Shown: positions 1 to 7,825, counted from the stretch's first letter. The stretch is 7,825 nucleotides of DNA from a virus (IMGVR_UViG_2681813268_000005), one strand, 5' to 3'. Notes: a model not told the origin generated them from the sequence alone. Translations and numbers: made by a program.

Positions 1-121
1 AGAAAAGCCCCAGTTAACATTACGCGTCCGGCAAGACGCTTAACATTAATCTGAGGCTCAATCTATGAACGGCAAATCTAGGTTAGCCTCTTACGTGCCG
101 AAAGGCAAGGAGAAGCAGGCT

Positions 122-277
122 ATGAAGCAGCAAAAGGCGATGTTAATCGCCCTGATCGTCATCTGTTTAACCGTCATAGTGACGGCACTGGTAACGAGGA
201 AAGACCTCTGCGAGGTACGAATTCGAACCGGCCAGACGGAGGTCGCTGTCTTCACAGCTTACGAACCTGAGGAGTAA
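122..277 (+). CDS. hokD: Hok/Gef family type I toxin (small membrane-depolarising peptide), 51 aa
   Basis: Translation MKQQKAMLIALIVICLTVIVTALVTRKDLCEVRIRTGQTEVAVFTAYEPEE matches the HokD/RelF sequence as I recall it; single TM helix plus conserved C-terminal region; AAGGAG SD 106-111 about 9 nt upstream of ATG 122. The ORF track's in-frame extension from 65 is probably not the real start. Confidence 0.85.
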   Translation: MKQQKAMLIALIVICLTVIVTALVTRKDLCEVRIRTGQTEVAVFTAYEPEE

Positions 278-347
278 GAGACCAGGCGGGGGAGAAATCC
301 CTCGCCACCTCTGATGGGTCAGGCATCCTCAATGCACCCACACTTAA

Positions 348-378
348 CCCGCTTCGGCGGGTTTTTGTTTTTATTTTC
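348..378 (+). terminator. Rho-independent terminator downstream of hok
   Basis: Stem CCCGC (348-352), loop TTCG, stem GCGGG (357-361), followed by TTTTTGTTTTTATTTTC. Confidence 0.6.
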
Positions 379-385
379 AACGCGT

Positions 386-415
386 TTGAAGTTTTAGATG
401 GTGCCGGAATAGAAT
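386..415 (+). promoter_or_regulatory. Candidate sigma70 promoter for the downstream rem-like/DUF968/rusA/Q gene string
   Basis: TTGAAG (386-391), 18-nt spacer, TAGAAT (410-415); sits directly after the hok terminator and about 80 nt upstream of the next CDS. Motif match only. Confidence 0.35.
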
Positions 416-497
416 CAAAAATACTTAAGTAGCGCGCAGGGAGAAGAGGGATGGACCCCGAACAGGGGAGTGCTATTTATCTGGAAGGATTCTGTTG

Positions 498-779
498 ATG
501 AAAATCGAAGAATTACGTGAAATTTTTAGTGAAGATGGCCTCTATACTGTGCGCGTTGAGAATGGCGCTATTGTCAGCCACTGCCTTCCAGACTACACAA
601 TTCTGATAATTCAGCCGTCTTTGCCAGCAGGCACGGGCGGCGCTCTCACGCATTTAAATCTGATTGGTACCAGCATCCCCCATGCACTGAAGAACAGGCC
701 GAATGGCTCATTCAGTGTTACCGCAGGCGCGGATGCGAGGTTAAAAAAGCCCTTAGCCTCGACTACCGTCACTGGATAA
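498..779 (+). CDS. Small hypothetical prophage protein, in the position of rem in Qin-like prophages (hok - rem - ydfU order)
   Basis: ORF with AAGGA SD (485-489) 8 nt before ATG 498 (the track's 495 start is a TTG); N-terminus MKIEELREIFSEDGLYTVRVENGAIVSHCLPDY looks protein-like, the C-terminal third is low complexity. Assignment by synteny only. Confidence 0.4.
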   Translation: MKIEELREIFSEDGLYTVRVENGAIVSHCLPDYTILIIQPSLPAGTGGALTHLNLIGTSIPHALKNRPNGSFSVTAGADARLKKPLASTTVTG

Positions 780-854
780 TCTCCGTCAGGCTCCCTTACT
801 CCGAACGGCCAACGCGTCCGTCCCGCACATTCCAGCAACGGATCTGGAGGTAAT

Positions 855-1913
855 GTGCGGGTATTACTTCGACCTGTTCTGGTACCGGAACTCGGTCTGG
901 TTATCGTTAAGCCAGGCCGTGAATCAATGTCAGCATTCCATAACGGCAGAATACTGGTGGAGCCGGAACCAAAAAGCATGCGTAATCTGCCGTCCGGGGT
1001 CGTTCCTGCCGCTCGCCAGCCGCTGGTGGAAGACAAAACATTGCTGCCGTTTTTCAGTAACGCACGGGTGATTCGTGCTGCTGGTGGTGCTGGTGCATTG
1101 TCTGACTGGCTGTTGCGCCATATTAAATCCTGCCAGTGGCCACACGGCGATTATCATCACAGCGAAACCGTCATTCACCGTTATGGTACCGGCGCAATGG
1201 TGTTGTGCTGGCACTGCGACAACCAGCTGCGTGACCAGACATCCGAATCACTCGGGCAACTTGCTCATCAAAACCTGTCAGCATGGATGATTGACGTCAT
1301 CGGTCACGCAATAAGCGGTACGCAGGAGCGTGAATTATCTCTGGCTGAATTATCCTGGTGGGCGGTCCGCAATCAGGTGGCGGACGCGCTACCGGAAGCG
1401 GTATTACGTCGTTCGCTGGGGTTGCGTGCGGAAAAAATTCGCTCTGTGTACAGTGAAAGCGACATCATACCGGGAGAGCAGACAGCCACCAGCATACTGA
1501 AGCAGCGCACAAAAAATATTGCGTTACTGCCTCACGTCCACCAGCAACAGAACCCACCACAGGAAAAGACGGTGGTCAGCATTGCCGTTGATCCGGAGTC
1601 ACCGGCTCAGTATCTCCAGCGCCAGAAATCACAACGGGAAGAGATGCCTGTATACACGCGCTGGGTAAAAACGCAGAAATGCATGACGTGTGGCAATCAG
1701 GCAGATGATCCGCATCACATCATTGGTCATGGACTGGGAGGGATGGGAACAAAGGCTGATGATTTGTTTGTTATTCCGTTATGCCGTAAATGCCGTAACG
1801 AACTACATGCCGGAGTAAAAGATTTTGAAGAGAAACACGGCAGTCAGCTGTTGTTGCTGATTCGTTTTTTAATGCACGCGAGAAATTCGGGTGTTCTGAA
1901 GTGGAAAGCATAA
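855..1913 (+). CDS. DUF968-family prophage protein (YdfU-like) with a C-terminal Cys/His cluster
   Basis: 352-aa ORF; C-terminal CMTCGN...DPHHIIGHGLGG...CRKCRNELH motif typical of YdfU-type proteins found upstream of Q in Qin-like prophages; stop TAA 1911-1913 abuts the rusA ATG. Start uncertain: GTG 855 has GGAGG only 4 nt upstream; ATG 927 and ATG 978 are alternatives. Confidence 0.6.
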   Translation: MRVLLRPVLVPELGLVIVKPGRESMSAFHNGRILVEPEPKSMRNLPSGVVPAARQPLVEDKTLLPFFSNARVIRAAGGAGALSDWLLRHIKSCQWPHGDYHHSETVIHRYGTGAMVLCWHCDNQLRDQTSESLGQLAHQNLSAWMIDVIGHAISGTQERELSLAELSWWAVRNQVADALPEAVLRRSLGLRAEKIRSVYSESDIIPGEQTATSILKQRTKNIALLPHVHQQQNPPQEKTVVSIAVDPESPAQYLQRQKSQREEMPVYTRWVKTQKCMTCGNQADDPHHIIGHGLGGMGTKADDLFVIPLCRKCRNELHAGVKDFEEKHGSQLLLLIRFLMHARNSGVLKWKA

Positions 1914-2294
1914 ATGACTGAACGCATAGAATTTGTTTTGCCTTACCCGCCAACGGTGAACACTTACTGGCGTCGTCGTGGCAGCACATATTTTGTATCA
2001 AAAGCCGGGGAGCGTTATCGCCGGGCAGTGGCGCTTATTGTTCGCCAGCAGCGGCTGAAATTAAGCCTGTCCGGAAGGTTGGCAATAAAAATTATTGCAG
2101 AACCACCGGATAAGCGCCGCCGTGACCTGGACAATATTCTGAAAGCGCCGCTGGATGCGCTGACGCATGCGGGGTTGCTAATGGACGATGAGCAGTTTGA
2201 TGAAATCAATATCGTTCGTGCTCAGCCAGTATCTGGTGGACGTCTGGGGGTGAAGATTTACCCCATAATGCTTGAAGGGCAGGTCAAAAAATGA
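1914..2294 (+). CDS. rusA: RusA-family Holliday junction resolvase (crossover junction endodeoxyribonuclease)
   Basis: 126 aa; LPYPPTVNTYWRRRG N-terminus and DKRRRDLDN...DDEQ acidic catalytic motifs characteristic of RusA; typical size; ATG immediately follows the upstream stop. Confidence 0.85.
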   Translation: MTERIEFVLPYPPTVNTYWRRRGSTYFVSKAGERYRRAVALIVRQQRLKLSLSGRLAIKIIAEPPDKRRRDLDNILKAPLDALTHAGLLMDDEQFDEINIVRAQPVSGGRLGVKIYPIMLEGQVKK

Positions 2295-3112
2295 AACTGG
2301 AAGATTTACCGAAATACTACTCCCCAAAATCCCCCGGCCTGACTGATGCATCGGCCTCAACGTCGAAAGATGCGCTGAGTATCACTGATGTGATGGCCGC
2401 GCAGGGCATGACACAGAATCGGGCTGAGATGGGGGTTTCTGCGTTCCTTGGGAAAATGGGCATTAGTATGAATGACAGAGAGCGGGCAACAGAATTGCTG
2501 ACAGAATATGCACTCAGTCGGTGTGATCGCGTGGCGGCGTTAAGAAAACTCCCGGCAGAAATAAAACCGGCAGTGATGCGTATTATGGCTTCGTATGCGT
2601 TTGAAGATTATGCCCGTAGCGCGGCGAGCAAAAAACAGTGCCCCTGCTGTCACGGAAAAAAATTTATTGAAAGCGAGGTTTTTACAAACAAGATCCAGTA
2701 TCCGGATGGTAAGCCGCCGGTATGGGCAAAGTGTACGAAAGGTGTGTATCCGTCTTACTGGGAAGAATGGAAAAAAGTCAGGGAGGTGGTAAAAGTTGCC
2801 TGTCCGGAGTGTGGCGGAAAGGGTGAGGTTTCCACCGCCTGTAAGGATTGCCGTGGGCGTGGTGTCGCCATTCATCGTGAAGAGTCGGTAAAACGTGGTA
2901 TGCCTGTTATCAGAGACTGCCAGCGTTGTGGTGGTCGTGGCTGTGAAAGGCTGCCATCAACGGAGGCATTTAATGCCATATGCAAAGTGACGAGTGCTAT
3001 CACGCTTGATACGTGGAAAAAATCAGTGAAACGCTTTTACGATACGTTGGTGGTTCGGTTTGACATTGAAGAGGCATGGGCGGAGCGGCAGTTAAAGAGG
3101 GTAACGCGATAG
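2291..3112 (+). CDS. Late-gene antitermination protein Q (lambda-Q family, 273 aa, expanded zinc-binding region)
   Basis: N-terminus MKLEDLPKYYSPKSPGLTD...ITDVMAAQGM parallels lambda Q (MRLESVAKFHSPKSPMMSD...GTDVMAAMGM, from memory); one degenerate and three perfect CxxCxGxG motifs; ATGA start/stop overlap with rusA; followed directly by a lambda-like PR'/qut/tR' module. Confidence 0.8.
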   Translation: MKLEDLPKYYSPKSPGLTDASASTSKDALSITDVMAAQGMTQNRAEMGVSAFLGKMGISMNDRERATELLTEYALSRCDRVAALRKLPAEIKPAVMRIMASYAFEDYARSAASKKQCPCCHGKKFIESEVFTNKIQYPDGKPPVWAKCTKGVYPSYWEEWKKVREVVKVACPECGGKGEVSTACKDCRGRGVAIHREESVKRGMPVIRDCQRCGGRGCERLPSTEAFNAICKVTSAITLDTWKKSVKRFYDTLVVRFDIEEAWAERQLKRVTR

Positions 3113-3117
3113 TGTTG

Positions 3118-3168
3118 TTGATTTTTCCCGAATCTGTGGTAAATTTGCTCTAACGATGGGCGTTTTAT
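3118..3168 (+). promoter_or_regulatory. Late promoter PR' with Q-utilisation (qut) region and sigma70-dependent pause element
   Basis: TTGATT (3118-3123), 16-nt spacer, extended -10 TGgTAAATT (3137-3145); AACGAT -10-like pause inducer at 3152-3157; the stretch GGTAAATTTGCTCTAACGATGGG closely resembles lambda PR' GGGTAAATTTGACTCAACGATGGG (from memory). Predicted TSS near 3152. Confidence 0.65.
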
Positions 3169-3194
3169 GCCTGACGTTAGAAGATTTTTTACAC

Positions 3195-3216
3195 CCCGCC
3201 GCCTGGCGGGTTTTTT
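3195..3216 (+). terminator. tR'-like rho-independent terminator of the short PR' leader RNA
   Basis: CCCGCC (3195-3200), loop GCCT, GGCGGG (3205-3210), then TTTTTT (3211-3216); about 60 nt downstream of the predicted TSS. Confidence 0.65.
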
Positions 3217-3338
3217 ATGACTGAAATCGCGTCAGTACAGTAAACGCGCTGGTGGCGGTGAATACCTGTCTTTCAGCTTGCTGGCTTTTTCGACAAGAGT
3301 TATTGGTGTGTCACGTTAACCGGAAAAGGGAAAAAGAC

Positions 3339-3536
3339 ATGCTAAAACAGCAGGATATGACAGAAACCGCCAGAGTGGTGTTTAATGAATTAAGCGTTAC
3401 CGAACCGGCGACAGTCGGGGAGATAGCGCAGAATACTTACCTTTCACGCGAACGCTGCCAGTTAATACTGACCCAGCTGGTTATGGCGGGTCTGGCAGAC
3501 TATCAGTTCGGTTGTTACAGACGCCTTCCGCAGTGA
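3339..3536 (+). CDS. 65-aa hypothetical protein, possible small winged-helix/HTH DNA-binding protein
   Basis: ATG 3339 preceded by a purine-rich GGAAAAGGGAAAAAGAC; segment ATVGEIAQNTYLSRERCQLILTQLVMAGLADY has helix-turn-helix character; an identical 65-aa ORF recurs at 4576-4773. The track's longer 3252 start is a GTG extension not conserved in copy 2. Confidence 0.55.
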   Translation: MLKQQDMTETARVVFNELSVTEPATVGEIAQNTYLSRERCQLILTQLVMAGLADYQFGCYRRLPQ

Positions 3537-3550
3537 AGGCTTTTTTATTT
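3523..3550 (+). terminator. Rho-independent terminator overlapping the orf65 stop codon
   Basis: GCCTTC (3523-3528), loop CGCAGT, GAAGGC (3535-3540), then TTTTTTATTT. Confidence 0.55.
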
Positions 3551-3563
3551 GTGGTAAATGGGC

Positions 3564-3594
3564 GGCTGGTGGGTGTTAGGGGCACCCACCAGCC
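3564..3594 (+). repeat. Perfect 12-bp inverted repeat (hairpin, 7-nt loop) in the leader upstream of the methyltransferase gene
   Basis: GGCTGGTGGGTG (3564-3575), loop TTAGGGG, CACCCACCAGCC (3583-3594); no U-tract follows; preceded by TGTGGTAAATGGGCGG, which resembles the PR' extended -10. Confidence 0.6.
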
Positions 3595-3686
3595 ATCTGC
3601 TCATGCGTTGGGTTCACAAGCAAACCTCAGGCCCACTGCTTTGCGCAAAAGCAGAATGAGCCTATCAGAGACAGGCTTAATGATCC

Positions 3687-3803
3687 ATGCTTAATACTGT
3701 AAAAATATCCAGTTGCGAGTTAATCAACGCCGACTGCCTGGAATTTATCCGGTCGTTACCCGAAAATTCTGTTGACCTGATAGTCACGGACCGGCAGAAA
3801 TAA
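3687..3803 (+). pseudogene. N-terminal stub of the DNA methyltransferase gene (38 codons, then out-of-frame stop)
   Basis: 3687-3792 matches the 5' end of the full methyltransferase gene (4924-5029) with one substitution; homology ends at 3792, where the sequence switches to Q-gene sequence; the methyltransferase frame stops at TAA 3801-3803. Confidence 0.7.
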
Positions 3804-4351
3804 AACCGGTAGTGATGCGCATTATGGCTTCGTACGCTTTTGAGGATTATGCCCGCAGCGCAGCGAGTAAAAAGCAGTGCCCTTGTTGCTATGGGGAAAA
3901 ATTTATTGAAAGCGTAGTTTTTACAAACAAGGTCCAGTATCCGGATGGTAAGCCGCCGGTATGGGCAAAGTGTACGAAAGGTGTGTATCCGTCTTACTGG
4001 GAAGAATGGAAAAAAGTCAGGGAGGTGGTAAAAGTTGCCTGTCCGGAGTGTGGCGGAAAGGGTGAGGTTTCCACCGCCTGTAAGGATTGCCGTGGGCGTG
4101 GTGTCGCCATTCATCGTGAAGAGTCGGTAAAACGTGGTATGCCTGTTATCAGAGACTGCCAGCGTTGTGGTGGTCGTGGCTATGAAAGACTACCATCAAC
4201 GGAGGCATTTAATGCTATATGCGAGGTGACAAACCAGATAACACGCGCGTCATGGGAAAAAACAGTTAAGAAATTTTATGATGCGCTGGTGACCCGGTTT
4301 GATATTGAAGAAGCATGGGCTGAGCGGCAGTTAAAAAAGGTAACTAGGTAA
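3793..4351 (+). pseudogene. 3' fragment of a second, divergent Q antiterminator allele (C-terminal ~180 residues, lacks N-terminus)
   Basis: Homologous to 2554-3112 of the full Q gene; central segment (3941-4180 vs 2701-2940) appears nucleotide-identical, flanks diverge (about 17 aa substitutions by eye, including Cys to Tyr in GGRGCERLP to GGRGYERLP). The track ORF 3812-4351 begins at an internal GTG; no native start or RBS. Confidence 0.7.
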
Positions 4352-4356
4352 CAAGG

Positions 4357-4407
4357 TTGATTTTTCCGGAATCTGTGGTAAATTCGTCATAACGATGGGC
4401 GTTTTAT
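4357..4407 (+). promoter_or_regulatory. Second PR'/qut copy (divergent allele)
   Basis: TTGATT (4357-4362), 16-nt spacer, TGgTAAATT (4376-4384), AACGAT pause element 4391-4396; differs from copy 1 at several positions in the initial transcribed region. Confidence 0.6.
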
Positions 4408-4433
4408 GCCTGACGTTAGAAGAGTTTCTACAA

Positions 4434-4455
4434 CCCGCCGCCGAGCGGGTTTTTT
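4434..4455 (+). terminator. Second tR'-like terminator
   Basis: CCCGC (4434-4438), loop CGCCGA, GCGGG (4445-4449), TTTTTT (4450-4455). Confidence 0.6.
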
Positions 4456-4575
4456 ATGACTGAAATCGCGTCAGTACAGTAAACGCGCTGGTGGCGGTGA
4501 ATACCTGTCTTTCAGCTTGCTGGCTTTTTCGACAAGAGTTATTGGTGTGTCACGTTAACCGGAAAAGGAAAAGAC

Positions 4576-4773
4576 ATGCTAAAACAGCAGGATATGACAG
4601 AAACCGCCAGAGTGGTGTTTAATGAATTAAGCGTTACCGAACCGGCGACAGTCGGGGAGATAGCGCAGAATACTTACCTTTCACGCGAACGCTGCCAGTT
4701 AATACTGACCCAGCTGGTTATGGCGGGTCTGGCAGACTATCAGTTCGGTTGTTACAGACGCCTTCCGCAGTGA
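4576..4773 (+). CDS. 65-aa hypothetical protein, second copy (identical protein to 3339-3536)
   Basis: Identical translation; a 2-nt indel just upstream removes the spurious N-terminal extension seen in copy 1, supporting the ATG as the true start. Confidence 0.55.
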   Translation: MLKQQDMTETARVVFNELSVTEPATVGEIAQNTYLSRERCQLILTQLVMAGLADYQFGCYRRLPQ

Positions 4774-4787
4774 AGGCTTTTTTATTT
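4760..4787 (+). terminator. Rho-independent terminator after orf65 copy 2
   Basis: GCCTTC (4760-4765), loop CGCAGT, GAAGGC (4772-4777), T-run. Confidence 0.55.
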
Positions 4788-4800
4788 GTGGTAAATGGGC

Positions 4801-4831
4801 GGCTGGTGGGTGTTAGGGGCACCCACCAGCC
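4801..4831 (+). repeat. Second copy of the 12-bp-stem hairpin
   Basis: GGCTGGTGGGTG (4801-4812), loop TTAGGGG, CACCCACCAGCC (4820-4831); identical to 3564-3594. Confidence 0.6.
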
Positions 4832-4923
4832 ATCTGCTCATGCGTTGGGTTCACAAGCAAACCTCAGGCCCACTGCTTTGCGCAAAAGCAGAATGAGCCT
4901 ATCAGAGACAGGCTTAATGATCC

Positions 4924-5982
4924 ATGCTTAATACTGTAAAAATATCCAGTTGTGAGTTAATCAACGCCGACTGCCTGGAATTTATCCGGTCGTTACCCGA
5001 AAATTCTGTTGACCTGATAGTCACGGACCCGCCGTACTTTAAAGTGAAGCCTGAGGGCTGGGATAACCAGTGGAAGGGCGACGATGATTACCTGAAGTGG
5101 CTGGACCAGTGTCTGGCGCAGTTCTGGCGGGTGCTGAAACCTGCCGGAAGTCTTTACCTGTTCTGTGGTCATCGCCTGGCATCTGATATCGAAATCATGA
5201 TGCGTGAACGCTTCAGTGTGCTGAACCATATTATCTGGGCGAAGCCGTCCGGACGCTGGAACGGATGCAACAAGGAAAGCCTGCGGGCGTATTTCCCCGC
5301 CACAGAGCGCATTCTGTTCGCGGAACATTATCAGGGGCCGTATCGTCCGAAAGATGCCGGGTATGCGGCGAAGGGCAGTGCACTGAAACAGCATGTGATG
5401 GCCCCGCTGATTTCTTACTTTCGTGATGCGCGAGCTGCCCTGGGGATAACGGCAAAACAGATTGCAGATGCCACAGGAAAGAAAAACATGGTGTCGCACT
5501 GGTTCAGTGCCGGTCAGTGGCAGTTGCCGAATGAAAGCGATTATCTGAAATTACAGGCGCTGTTTGCCCGGGTGGCAGAAGAGAAGCATCGGCGTGGTGA
5601 ACTGGAAAAGCTCCACCACCAGCTGGTGGATACGTATACCTCACTGAACCGGCAGTATGCGGAGCTGCTGAGTGAATATAAACATCTGCGGCGGTATTTT
5701 GGCGTGACGGTGCAGGTGCCGTATACCGATGTGTGGACGCATAAACCGGTGCAGTTCTATCCCGGGAAACATCCGTGCGAAAAACCGGCAGAAATGCTGC
5801 AGCAGATAATCAGCGCTAGCAGTCGTCCGGGTGACCTGATTGCAGATTTTTTCATGGGGTTGGGTTCGACAGTGAAAGCGGCACTGGCGCTCGGGCGTCG
5901 TGCAATTGGCGTTGAGCTGGAGACTGAACGTTTTGAGCAGACGGTTCGGGAAGTACAGGATTTAGTCAGCCAGAACGGATGA
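4924..5982 (+). CDS. DNA methyltransferase, beta-class N6-adenine/N4-cytosine family (orphan; no restriction endonuclease gene in window)
   Basis: 352 aa; catalytic DPPY motif (VTDPPYF) near the N-terminus and AdoMet-binding FxGxG (DLIADFFMGLGST) near the C-terminus, the beta-class motif order (IV before I); the location between Q and the tRNA cluster is typical of lambdoid and Stx-type prophages. Confidence 0.85.
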   Translation: MLNTVKISSCELINADCLEFIRSLPENSVDLIVTDPPYFKVKPEGWDNQWKGDDDYLKWLDQCLAQFWRVLKPAGSLYLFCGHRLASDIEIMMRERFSVLNHIIWAKPSGRWNGCNKESLRAYFPATERILFAEHYQGPYRPKDAGYAAKGSALKQHVMAPLISYFRDARAALGITAKQIADATGKKNMVSHWFSAGQWQLPNESDYLKLQALFARVAEEKHRRGELEKLHHQLVDTYTSLNRQYAELLSEYKHLRRYFGVTVQVPYTDVWTHKPVQFYPGKHPCEKPAEMLQQIISASSRPGDLIADFFMGLGSTVKAALALGRRAIGVELETERFEQTVREVQDLVSQNG

Positions 5983-5984
5983 TA

Positions 5985-6013
5985 TTGAAGAATTAATTAC
6001 GCGTCGTTATTAT
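5985..6013 (+). promoter_or_regulatory. Candidate sigma70 promoter of the tRNA operon
   Basis: TTGAAG (5985-5990), 17-nt spacer, TATTAT (6008-6013); 9 nt before the first tRNA; overlaps the methyltransferase stop codon. Confidence 0.5.
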
Positions 6014-6022
6014 GCGGCTCCC

Positions 6023-6098
6023 GGCCCTTTAGCTCAGTGGTGAGAGCGAGCGACTCATAATCGCCAGGTCGCTGGTTCAAATCCAGCAAGGGCCACCA
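6023..6098 (+). tRNA. ileZ: tRNA-Ile2 (anticodon CAU, presumably lysidine-modified; reads AUA)
   Basis: Hand-folded cloverleaf: acceptor GGCCCTT/AAGGGCC, D-arm GCTC/GAGC, anticodon loop CTCATAA, T-arm GCTGG-TTCAAAT-CCAGC, encoded CCA; close to E. coli ileX rather than an elongator Met tRNA. Confidence 0.9.
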
Positions 6099-6105
6099 TC
6101 ACATA

Positions 6106-6182
6106 CCGCCATTAGCTCATCAGGAAAGAGCGCCAGCCTTCGAAGCTGGCTGCGCGGGGTTCAAGTCCCCGATGGCGGTCCA
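6106..6182 (+). tRNA. argN: tRNA-Arg (anticodon UCG)
   Basis: Cloverleaf: acceptor CCGCCAT/ATGGCGG, anticodon stem CCAGC/GCTGG, loop CTTCGAA, T-arm CGGGG-TTCAAGT-CCCCG, encoded CCA. Gene name by analogy with the ileZ-argN-argO clusters of lambdoid/Stx phages. Confidence 0.85.
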
Positions 6183-6195
6183 TTATCTGCATCAT

Positions 6196-6272
6196 GCGTT
6201 GTTAGCTCAGCCGGACAGAGCAATTGCCTTCTAAGCAATCGGTCACTGGTTCGAATCCAGTACAACGCGCCA
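6196..6272 (+). tRNA. argO: tRNA-Arg (anticodon UCU; reads rare AGA/AGG)
   Basis: Cloverleaf: acceptor GCGTTGT/ACAACGC, anticodon stem ATTGC/GCAAT, loop CTTCTAA, T-arm ACTGG-TTCGAAT-CCAGT, encoded CCA. Confidence 0.85.
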
Positions 6273-6299
6273 CACTTATTTTCCCTGGCTCGCTTTTGA

Positions 6300-7319
6300 G
6301 AGTTAATCAACGCCGACTGCCTGGAATTTATCCGGTCGTTACCCGAAAATTCTGTTGACCTGATAGTCACGGACCCGCCGTACTTTAAAGTGAAGCCTGA
6401 GGGCTGGGATAACCAGTGGAAGGGCGACGATGATTACCTGAAGTGGCTGGACCAGTGTCTGGCGCAGTTCTGGCGGGTGCTGAAACCTGCCGGAAGTCTT
6501 TACCTGTTCTGTGGTCATCGCCTGGCATCTGATATCGAAATCATGATGCGTGAACGCTTCAGTGTGCTGAACCATATTATCTGGGCGAAGCCGTCCGGAC
6601 GCTGGAACGGATGCAACAAGGAAAGCCTGCGGGCGTATTTCCCCGCCACAGAGCGCATTCTGTTCGCGGAACATTATCAGGGGCCGTATCGTCCGAAAGA
6701 TGCCGGGTATGCGGCGAAGGGCAGTGCACTGAAACAGCATGTGATGGCCCCGCTGATTTCTTACTTTCGTGATGCGCGCGCGGCCCTGGGGATAACGGCA
6801 AAACAGATTGCAGATGCCACAGGAAAGAAAAACATGGTGTCGCACTGGTTCAGTGCCAGTCAGTGGCAGCTACCGAACGAAAGCGATTATCTGAAATTAC
6901 AGTCGCTGTTTGCCCGGGTGGCAGAAGAGAAACATCAGCGCGGTGAACTGGAAAAGCCCCACCACCAGCTGGTGGATACGTATACGTCACTGAACCGGCA
7001 GTATGTGGAGCTGCAGAGTGAATATAAGCATCTGCGGCGGTATTTTGGTGTGACGGCGCAGGTGCCGTACACGGATGTGTGGACACATAAACCGGTGCAG
7101 TTCTATCCCGGGAAACATCCGTGCGAAAAACCGGCAGAAATGCTGCAGCAGATAATCAGCGCAAGCAGTCGTCCGGGAGACCTGGTTGCAGATTTTTTTA
7201 TGGGCTCAGGTTCAACGGTAAAAGCGGCACTGGCGCTCGGGCGTCGTGCGATTGGCGTTGAACTGGAGACCGGACGTTTTGAGCAGACAGTCAGGGAAGT
7301 TCAGGATTTAATCGTTTGA
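6300..7319 (+). pseudogene. Second DNA methyltransferase copy, 5'-truncated (first ~10 codons and start codon missing), divergent 3' half
   Basis: Homology to the full gene begins at 6300 directly after an in-frame TGA (6297-6299); no ATG before the DPPY codons (6372-6383); first canonical start is GTG 6390, downstream of DPPY. The first ~480 nt are nearly identical to the full copy, the remainder diverges (e.g. DLVADFFMGSGST, different C-terminus). Confidence 0.6.
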
Positions 7320-7330
7320 AACGGATGAGA

Positions 7331-7359
7331 TTGCAGAATTAATTACGCACCATTATTAT
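7331..7359 (+). promoter_or_regulatory. Candidate sigma70 promoter of the second tRNA operon copy
   Basis: TTGCAG (7331-7336), 17-nt spacer, TATTAT (7354-7359), 9 nt before the tRNA. Confidence 0.5.
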
Positions 7360-7368
7360 TCTGCTCCC

Positions 7369-7444
7369 GGCCCTTTAGCTCAGTGGTGAGAGCGAGCGAC
7401 TCATAATCGCCAGGTCGCTGGTTCAAATCCAGCAAGGGCCACCA
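7369..7444 (+). tRNA. ileZ: tRNA-Ile2 (anticodon CAU), second copy
   Basis: Appears sequence-identical to 6023-6098. Confidence 0.9.
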
Positions 7445-7451
7445 TCACATA

Positions 7452-7528
7452 CCGCCATTAGCTCATCAGGAAAGAGCGCCAGCCTTCGAAGCTGGTTGCG
7501 CGGGGTTCAAGTCCCCGATGGCGGTCCA
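7452..7528 (+). tRNA. argN: tRNA-Arg (anticodon UCG), second copy
   Basis: Same cloverleaf as 6106-6182, with one substitution in the variable loop (TTGCG vs CTGCG). Confidence 0.85.
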
Positions 7529-7541
7529 TTATCTGCATCAT

Positions 7542-7618
7542 GCGTTGTTAGCTCAGCCGGACAGAGCAATTGCCTTCTAAGCAATCGGTCACTGGTTCGA
7601 ATCCAGTACAACGCGCCA
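7542..7618 (+). tRNA. argO: tRNA-Arg (anticodon UCU), second copy
   Basis: Appears sequence-identical to 6196-6272. Confidence 0.85.
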
Positions 7619-7632
7619 CACTTATTTTCCCT

Positions 7633-7658
7633 GGCTCGCTTTTGTGGGCCTTTTTTTT
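7633..7658 (+). terminator. Rho-independent terminator of the tRNA operon
   Basis: GGCTCGC (7633-7639), loop TTTT, GTGGGCC (7644-7650; 7-bp stem with two G-U pairs), then TTTTTTTT (7651-7658). The matching sequence after the first tRNA cluster is interrupted inside the loop at about 6296. Confidence 0.55.
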
Positions 7659-7825
7659 AAATGTCTCACAATTCAGGCGGTTGACTGTTGTCTGGTTTGC
7701 GGGGAGTTTGTTAAAAGAAACTGGCATGGTGAATCCCCCTGTGCGGAGGGGCAATCAGCGAGTAGGTATATGGGATAATCGCGGATTCAGGTGCTGGTAC
7801 TGAATTCACCGGGAGGCACCCGGCA

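Follow-up and report, generated by a model that had tools for sequence, protein, structure and literature searches.

The stretch of viral DNA IMGVR_UViG_2681813268_000005 (7,825 nucleotides (nt); hereafter the window) appears to carry a lambdoid prophage operon of three rare-codon transfer RNA (tRNA) genes twice in tandem, and this duplication is very probably a scaffolding artefact and not a real feature. A reading made from the sequence alone (the sequence-only reading) had taken the whole operon, with its promoter, to be tandemly duplicated, and had named beforehand an assembly artefact as the result that would speak against this; the evidence shows such an artefact. The window corresponds to the entire record CXEW01000199.1 (7825 bp) of the draft Shigella sonnei assembly GCA_001260755.1, and its Q antiterminator protein is annotated as Shigella sonnei. 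Record and window mismatch at positions 3790 and 6299 only, where the record holds an N and the window an A. Alignment of the repeats against the deposited record placed these two positions exactly at both repeat junctions. Since both junctions are N, CXEW01000199.1 is a scaffold of three contigs with single-N gaps. The A at 6299 is native to neither side, as the corresponding base is T or C in the terminator and T or C in the methylase gene. A genuine duplication would be read as continuous sequence across its junctions; here neither junction was ever sequenced, and the tandem arrangement is without direct sequence. The three pieces, labeled C1 to C3, and the two gaps are as follows.

1-3789, plus strand: contig C1, piece one of the scaffold (open reading frame (ORF) calls and Pfam; edge set by the N at 3790).
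3790, no strand: scaffold gap at junction A (repeat 2552-3795 / 3791-5032), N in CXEW01000199.1 and A in the window.
3791-6298, plus strand: contig C2, from a second prophage copy, ending within the terminator stem (allele matches and Pfam).
6299, no strand: scaffold gap at junction B (repeat 4950-6298 / 6296-7644), N in CXEW01000199.1 and A in the window.
6300-7825, plus strand: contig C3, with a methyltransferase, a promoter-like site, tRNA set 2, a terminator and the 5' part of STnc100 (match to TUM10008).

In the window as given, the repeat with the tRNA genes aligns 4950-6298 with 6296-7644 at 96.0% identity over 1349 nt. The sequence-only reading was right that the tRNA operon is repeated, but the repeat is longer than it described and takes in almost the whole DNA methyltransferase (methylase) gene. 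The upstream repeat (2552-3795 against 3791-5032, 93.8%) covers the 3' part of Q, the pR'/tR' region, an ORF of 65 amino acids (aa) and the 5' end of the methylase. The copies are identical over 3332-3715 and 4569-4952, over 4954-5432 and 6300-6778, and also in the tRNA region. The joins share only 2-5 nt. A pure mis-path through a de Bruijn graph was rejected, as this short sharing indicates scaffolding and not k-mer overlap.

Each piece has its own natural counterpart. Neighboring contigs share some 1.2-1.35 kb of homologous sequence at an identity of only 94-96%. C3 shows 3 differences in 1526 nt from Escherichia coli TUM10008 (comparison locus L002), against 57 from S. sonnei 53G (L007). 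Over 3933-6298, C2 matches the resident prophage of that strain at 100%; over 3815-6298, it matches L023, an unrelated contig from another assembly, equally well. C1 resembles 53G as far as 2942 (7 mismatches, counted from 586) and TUM10008 beyond. The copies are not derived from one another, each matching a different natural allele at 99.8-100%, and because each piece is nearly perfect to a separate allele, the 4-6% divergence represents pre-existing allelic variation and not decay after duplication. Divergence after duplication or gene conversion was rejected as the source of these differences, given the separate natural alleles and the N joins.

The positions of the contig ends point in the same direction. 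A de Bruijn graph yields contig ends at single-nucleotide polymorphisms (SNPs) between alleles, whereas a recombination junction has no reason to fall there. C2 ends in CTTTTG, and the following base is C in its own allele (L023 and L003) and T in the C3 allele. C2 therefore runs up to the base that precedes an inter-allele SNP. C3 begins directly behind another, nt 29 of the methylase, where C1 has C and where C2 and all other loci checked have T. With N at the joins, and with pieces that belong to different alleles and end at inter-allele SNPs, the claim of a tandem duplication fails.

The two outer pieces, moreover, fit each other. C1 ends with the same 73 nt with which C3 begins, and merging the two contigs through this overlap gives an intact methyltransferase of 349 aa, 1 aa off that of TUM10008, within a 5242-bp locus that is collinear with TUM10008 (98.9%). 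As scaffolded, the methylase gene of the second copy lacks a start codon; a TGA is in frame at 6297-6299, and the first possible start is a GTG at 6390, just past the DPPY motif. This start-less gene is a product of the false join. The 309-aa ORF that begins at this GTG was considered as a recurrent truncated paralogue and found to be unsupported, occurring on five other contigs, in each case within a single-copy locus or at the contig start.

The truncated Q gene of C2 can be viewed similarly. Its 178-aa version with an ATG start was found on 12 contigs, mostly at contig ends, and Q is thus a frequent assembly break point and not a biologically truncated gene. No exact protein record was found for the 179-aa version that starts with GTG. 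The 178-aa C-terminal product of C2-type Q was seen among loci L020-L028. In L024 (739-1571), C2-type Q is split into ORFs of 87 and 178 aa; this split, too, may stem from assembly, as the contig has a run of N shortly before it. L026 carries unrelated sequence ahead of the same point.

The junction was also searched for in other genomes. None of 5426 complete E. coli genomes reached 80% coverage of a 161-nt query across junction B, while its halves separately match 2381 of the 5426 (median of 2 places per genome, maximum of 16). The exact junction B string gave no match in IMG/VR, the GTDB species representatives or the JGI metagenomes. The recurrence in independent assemblies that a genuine duplication would lead one to expect was accordingly absent from these genomes and three collections. 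No end-to-end, one-piece match to the window was found among complete E. coli genomes or phage records, where the related loci are single-copy. The C2-type prophage has an ordinary single-copy layout, adjoining ompW, in 10 complete S. sonnei genomes.

Under a scaffolding origin, the isolate would harbor two or more related lambdoid prophages, all with a single copy of a module in the order Q antiterminator, pR'/tR', small ORF, DNA methyltransferase, tRNA-Ile2(CAU), tRNA-Arg(UCG), tRNA-Arg(UCU), terminator and STnc100. Short-read assembly would break this multi-copy region where alleles merge or split, and the scaffolder may have linked the three contigs through read pairs that are ambiguous in the identical stretches. 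If no exact overlap was found, the contigs would have been written end to end with one N between them. Concatenating overlapping homologous intervals of different prophage copies in this way would result in two nested tandem repeats with 4-6% divergence. C1 and C3, through their 73-nt overlap, would form one normal prophage late region, TUM10008-like in the 3' part of C1, and the methylase and tRNA set of C2 would belong to the resident S. sonnei prophage beside ompW. What the sequence really represents is most likely a pair of ordinary lambdoid prophages, with one Q, one methylase and one tRNA set each.

Joins of this type have been described. Page et al. 2016 present a pipeline of Velvet, SSPACE and GapFiller that is in wide use, that was run on 299 S. 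sonnei isolates among others, and that writes N gaps where read pairs join contigs; its authors state that these greedy tools can produce false joins (PMC5320598). The window resembles false joins of the SSPACE/GapFiller type in its single-N gaps, its homologous but non-identical overlaps, its contig ends at allele SNPs and its nature as a short scaffold made only of repeats. It differs from them in that the software behind GCA_001260755.1 is not documented in the sources consulted.

Several points weigh against a scaffolding artefact. The sources consulted document neither the assembler nor the scaffolder of GCA_001260755.1, and CXEW did not appear in the part of the accession table of PMC5320598 that was searched. 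Missing read support over the junctions is presumed. The order chosen by the scaffolder implies some linking read pairs, and this order could be right, with each N hiding a short real junction. The start of C2 at 3791 is less cleanly explained than the other ends, the next allele difference being only 19 nt away. Finally, a 73-nt overlap is not one less than any odd Velvet k-mer length, except if the N took the place of a base.

A rival possibility, which we consider very unlikely, is that the tandem arrangement is real and arose through two illegitimate recombinations at the level of microhomology, between co-resident lambdoid prophages or between a phage and a prophage, so that the alleles were divergent from the start. 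The assembler would then have failed to read through the junctions and the scaffolder would have ordered the contigs correctly. Consistent with this, the contigs are linked in the given order, which would need some read-pair support, and lambdoid prophages are mosaic and recombine often, with pieces present in up to 16 copies per genome. Against a real tandem, both junctions are unsequenced Ns, the contig ends lie at inter-allele SNPs, and the C1 end and C3 start overlap exactly and restore an intact gene. Two independent illegitimate events inside 2.5 kb would be needed, the junction was seen in 0 of 5426 complete E. coli genomes and in none of the three other collections, and unique junction k-mers are normally assembled and not left as gaps. 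With such an arrangement, both tRNA sets would be transcribed, and there would be a methylase stub of 38 aa, a Q truncated at its 5' end and a second methylase copy without a start codon. For the S. sonnei isolate itself, it is very doubtful that the scaffold order is right and that its genome holds two nested tandem repeats from illegitimate recombination between prophages; the rare-codon tRNA operon would then be present at twice the dosage, with a truncated Q and a methylase that lacks its start lying between the two copies. It is extremely improbable that the order is right with large gaps, each N standing for many kb between prophages integrated close together (for example, tandem polylysogens), as short-insert read pairs cannot span tens of kb to support such joins, the exact 73-nt overlap makes C1 and C3 neighbors with nothing between them, and the C2-type prophage has its single-copy layout in the 10 complete S. 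sonnei genomes.

Apart from the arrangement, the tRNA genes themselves are well defined. The two sets, with their flanking signals, are located as follows.

5985-6013, plus strand: promoter-like TTGAAG-17-TATTAT ahead of tRNA set 1 (motif in the sequence).
6023-6272, plus strand: tRNA set 1 (ARAGORN, Rfam).
6023-6098, plus strand: tRNA(CAU) of set 1 (ARAGORN; tRNA-Ile in RefSeq relatives).
6106-6182, plus strand: tRNA-Arg(UCG) of set 1 (ARAGORN).
6196-6272, plus strand: tRNA-Arg(UCU) of set 1 (ARAGORN).
7331-7359, plus strand: promoter-like TTGCAG-17-TATTAT ahead of tRNA set 2 (motif in the sequence and haplotype comparison).
7369-7618, plus strand: tRNA set 2 (ARAGORN, Rfam).
7369-7444, plus strand: tRNA(CAU) of set 2 (ARAGORN).
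7452-7528, plus strand: tRNA-Arg(UCG) of set 2 (ARAGORN).
7542-7618, plus strand: tRNA-Arg(UCU) of set 2 (ARAGORN).
7633-7658, plus strand: intrinsic-terminator-like hairpin GGCTCGCTTTTGTGGGCC followed by T8, after tRNA set 2 only (from the sequence).

All six genes scored 58-72 bits in Rfam (threshold of 29) and form valid cloverleafs in ARAGORN and Rfam, with the anticodons CAU, UCG and UCU in the order known from Shiga toxin (Stx) phages, so the anticodons stated in the sequence-only reading hold for both sets in the window as given. The sets differ at a single position, C6150/T7496 in tRNA-Arg(UCG), just 3' of the anticodon stem. The homologue of tRNA(CAU) is annotated as tRNA-Ile by RefSeq in L001 and L002 and as Met by ARAGORN and GenBank LC567837. 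Its sequence bears C4-G69 and C5-G68, which are TilS determinants; an identity as Ile2 rather than Met is putative, and the lysidine modification itself is predicted only.

The cluster lies in a lambdoid late region, downstream of Q and the DNA methylase, and has the same order in L001, L002 and the Stx2a phage Stx2_EH2246 (L029). The tRNA genes ileZ-argN-argO of 933W and VT2-Sakai were reportedly described by Plunkett et al. in 1999. Three phage tRNA genes are carried by 933W, Min27, VT2-Sakai, Stx2-II and Stx2-86 (PMC4631060).

The promoter-like element TTG(A/C)(A/G)G-17-TATTAT keeps its -10 hexamer and 17-nt spacing unchanged in 6 of 6 haplotypes, some of them without the methylase. In L021, L022 and L024-L026 (e.g., L021 600-760), the 65-aa ORF and the methylase are missing, and tR' is followed at once by the promoter-like element of the tRNA genes; the cluster and its promoter thus behave as a separable module. 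Regarding the terminator, the hairpin with T8 at 7633-7658 is indeed found in the second copy alone, but its apparent loss from the first is no more than the end of a contig, since tRNA set 1 lacks a terminator because C2 stops there.

Downstream of set 2, the sequence-only reading had found no ORF and no stx start in 7659-7825, which holds, and had left the cargo open. There is no stx, and the segment can be identified as the 5' two-thirds of a prophage small RNA (sRNA) gene.

7695-7825, plus strand: STnc100 (RF02076) prophage sRNA gene, 5' two-thirds (Rfam, model positions 1-142 of 206; cut by the contig end).

STnc100 scored 91.2 bits against an Rfam gathering score of 47 and starts 77 nt past the last tRNA of set 2; a full-length copy at the matching place in TUM10008 scored 132 bits. 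The published quantitative polymerase chain reaction (qPCR) primers for STnc_100 match the window at 7725-7817 (PMC12370729). Expression of STnc100 is reported from qPCR in Shiga toxin-producing E. coli strains, and the gene lies 75 nt downstream of stx2B in Stx2 phages (PMC12370729). Zhu, Shabalina and Storz relate STnc100 to PasD (bioRxiv 10.64898/2026.05.13.724894), and a pairing of STnc100 with stxB has been proposed, which is hypothetical according to its authors. The neighboring genes in TUM10008, iraM and a NanS-p esterase gene, match the published descriptions, whereas the window copy is truncated by the contig end.

The comparison with Stx phages indicates where a toxin operon would be located. 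In Stx2_EH2246, the tRNA genes (4095-4346) are followed after 90 nt by stx2A (4437-5396), stx2B (5408-5677), STnc100-homologous DNA (5719-5903), iraM and nanS-p, in agreement with the earlier statement that the cluster sits upstream of the toxin in Stx phages. Window 7542-7659 aligns with 4270-4386 of this phage and window 7662-7825 with 5719-5903, and the intervening 1332 bp with stx2AB (4387-5718) match the 2-nt interval 7660-7661. The toxin slot of the window is therefore empty, and no stx operon lies immediately downstream of the tRNA genes. This comparison pins the insertion of stx2AB to 7660-7661, between the tRNA terminator and STnc100. The cluster resembles that of Stx2 phages in having the same three anticodons in the same order, downstream of Q and a DNA methylase, at about 94% nt identity to Stx2a phages; it differs in that stx2AB stands between the terminator and STnc100 in Stx2 phages and is absent from the window. 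TUM10008, the complete genome closest to C3, continues with STnc100, iraM (minus strand), a SASA/NanS-p esterase gene, holin and lysozyme, and lacks stx there. Native C2-type sequence (L023 and L003) likewise runs from the terminator straight into STnc100-type sequence. In its own prophage, C2 would continue into CTTTTGCGGGCC, and in L023 or 53G the continuation begins CTTTTGCGGGCCTTTTTTTT.

The remaining genes lie in C1 and C2, together with the methylase gene of C3.

65-277, plus strand: hok, in C1.
855-1913, plus strand: DUF968 gene, in C1 (Pfam).
1914-2294, plus strand: RusA gene (rusA), in C1.
2291-3112, plus strand: Q antiterminator, in C1 (Pfam Antiterm).
3339-3536, plus strand: 65-aa ORF, copy in C1 (ORF call).
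From an ATG at 3688, plus strand: N6/N4 DNA methyltransferase, first 102 nt in C1 (ORF call).
3815-4351, plus strand: called product of the 3' 60% of the Q gene in C2 (ORF call).
4576-4773, plus strand: 65-aa ORF, copy in C2 (ORF call).
4924-5982, plus strand: complete N6/N4 DNA methyltransferase of 352 aa, in C2 (Pfam N6_N4_Mtase).
From 6300, plus strand: methyltransferase in C3, from nt 30 to the stop at 7319 (C3 sequence).

The order hok, DUF968 gene, rusA, Q and methyltransferase is that of the late-regulatory region of a lambdoid prophage. The hok region (1-585) is 100% identical to S. sonnei 53G; past position 585, 53G holds about 250 nt that are absent from the window (L007 6067-6902), and in L001 and L002 some 1.8 kb with additional genes separates hok from the DUF968 gene, which makes this a variable spot of the prophage. 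A pR'/tR'-like region is present in both C1 and C2. The stretch right after each Q stop (3113-3215 and 4352-4455) is conserved and closed by a strong terminator-like hairpin with a T-run (3195-3210 and 4432-4451). Judged by position, these two stretches represent the pR'-tR' unit of lambdoid phages; they matched no Rfam family. Stx phages make from pR' a short transcript that is an Hfq-binding sRNA in its own right, StxS. The 65-aa ORF between tR' and the methylase is conserved, hypothetical in all relatives and without a Pfam match, and each copy is followed by a terminator-like hairpin of its own (3523-3540 and 4760-4777).

In a single-copy module, the tRNA cluster would lie inside the Q-dependent late transcription unit while having its own conserved sigma-70-like promoter. 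The tRNAs may be made constitutively from this promoter and, in addition, by Q-antiterminated read-through from pR', and could supply isoacceptors for ATA, AGA/AGG and CGA that relieve a rare-codon limit on prophage genes. Codon counts agree with the earlier statement on rare codons, as ATA, AGA, AGG and CGA are 2-6 times commoner in prophage genes and stx2AB than in a core-gene sample. Per 1000 codons, the four together number 61 in stx2AB and 37.3 in the early genes of prophages; the stretch from nanS-p to the lysis genes has 21.2, against 10.8 for the sampled core genes. The strongest ATA enrichment of the gene sets examined was observed in iraM (L002 13318-13653, minus strand), the first protein gene after STnc100 in relatives, with 6 ATA in 112 codons (54 per 1000) and 0 rare Arg codons. 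Phages with these tRNAs are not better codon-adapted than relatives without them (PMC4631060), so a codon benefit of the tRNAs to prophage genes is no more than plausible.

Showing N placeholders as A makes unsequenced joins look continuous; in this window, the effect is a plausible-looking tandem duplication, together with a gene that seems truncated and a terminator that seems lost. Other stretches in which Ns were replaced likewise may be affected. The practical value of the case is a caution on scaffold Ns that have been replaced by a real base, and its biological weight is small. The Q–methylase–tRNA–STnc100 module, in single copy, is a common and already described part of lambdoid prophages.

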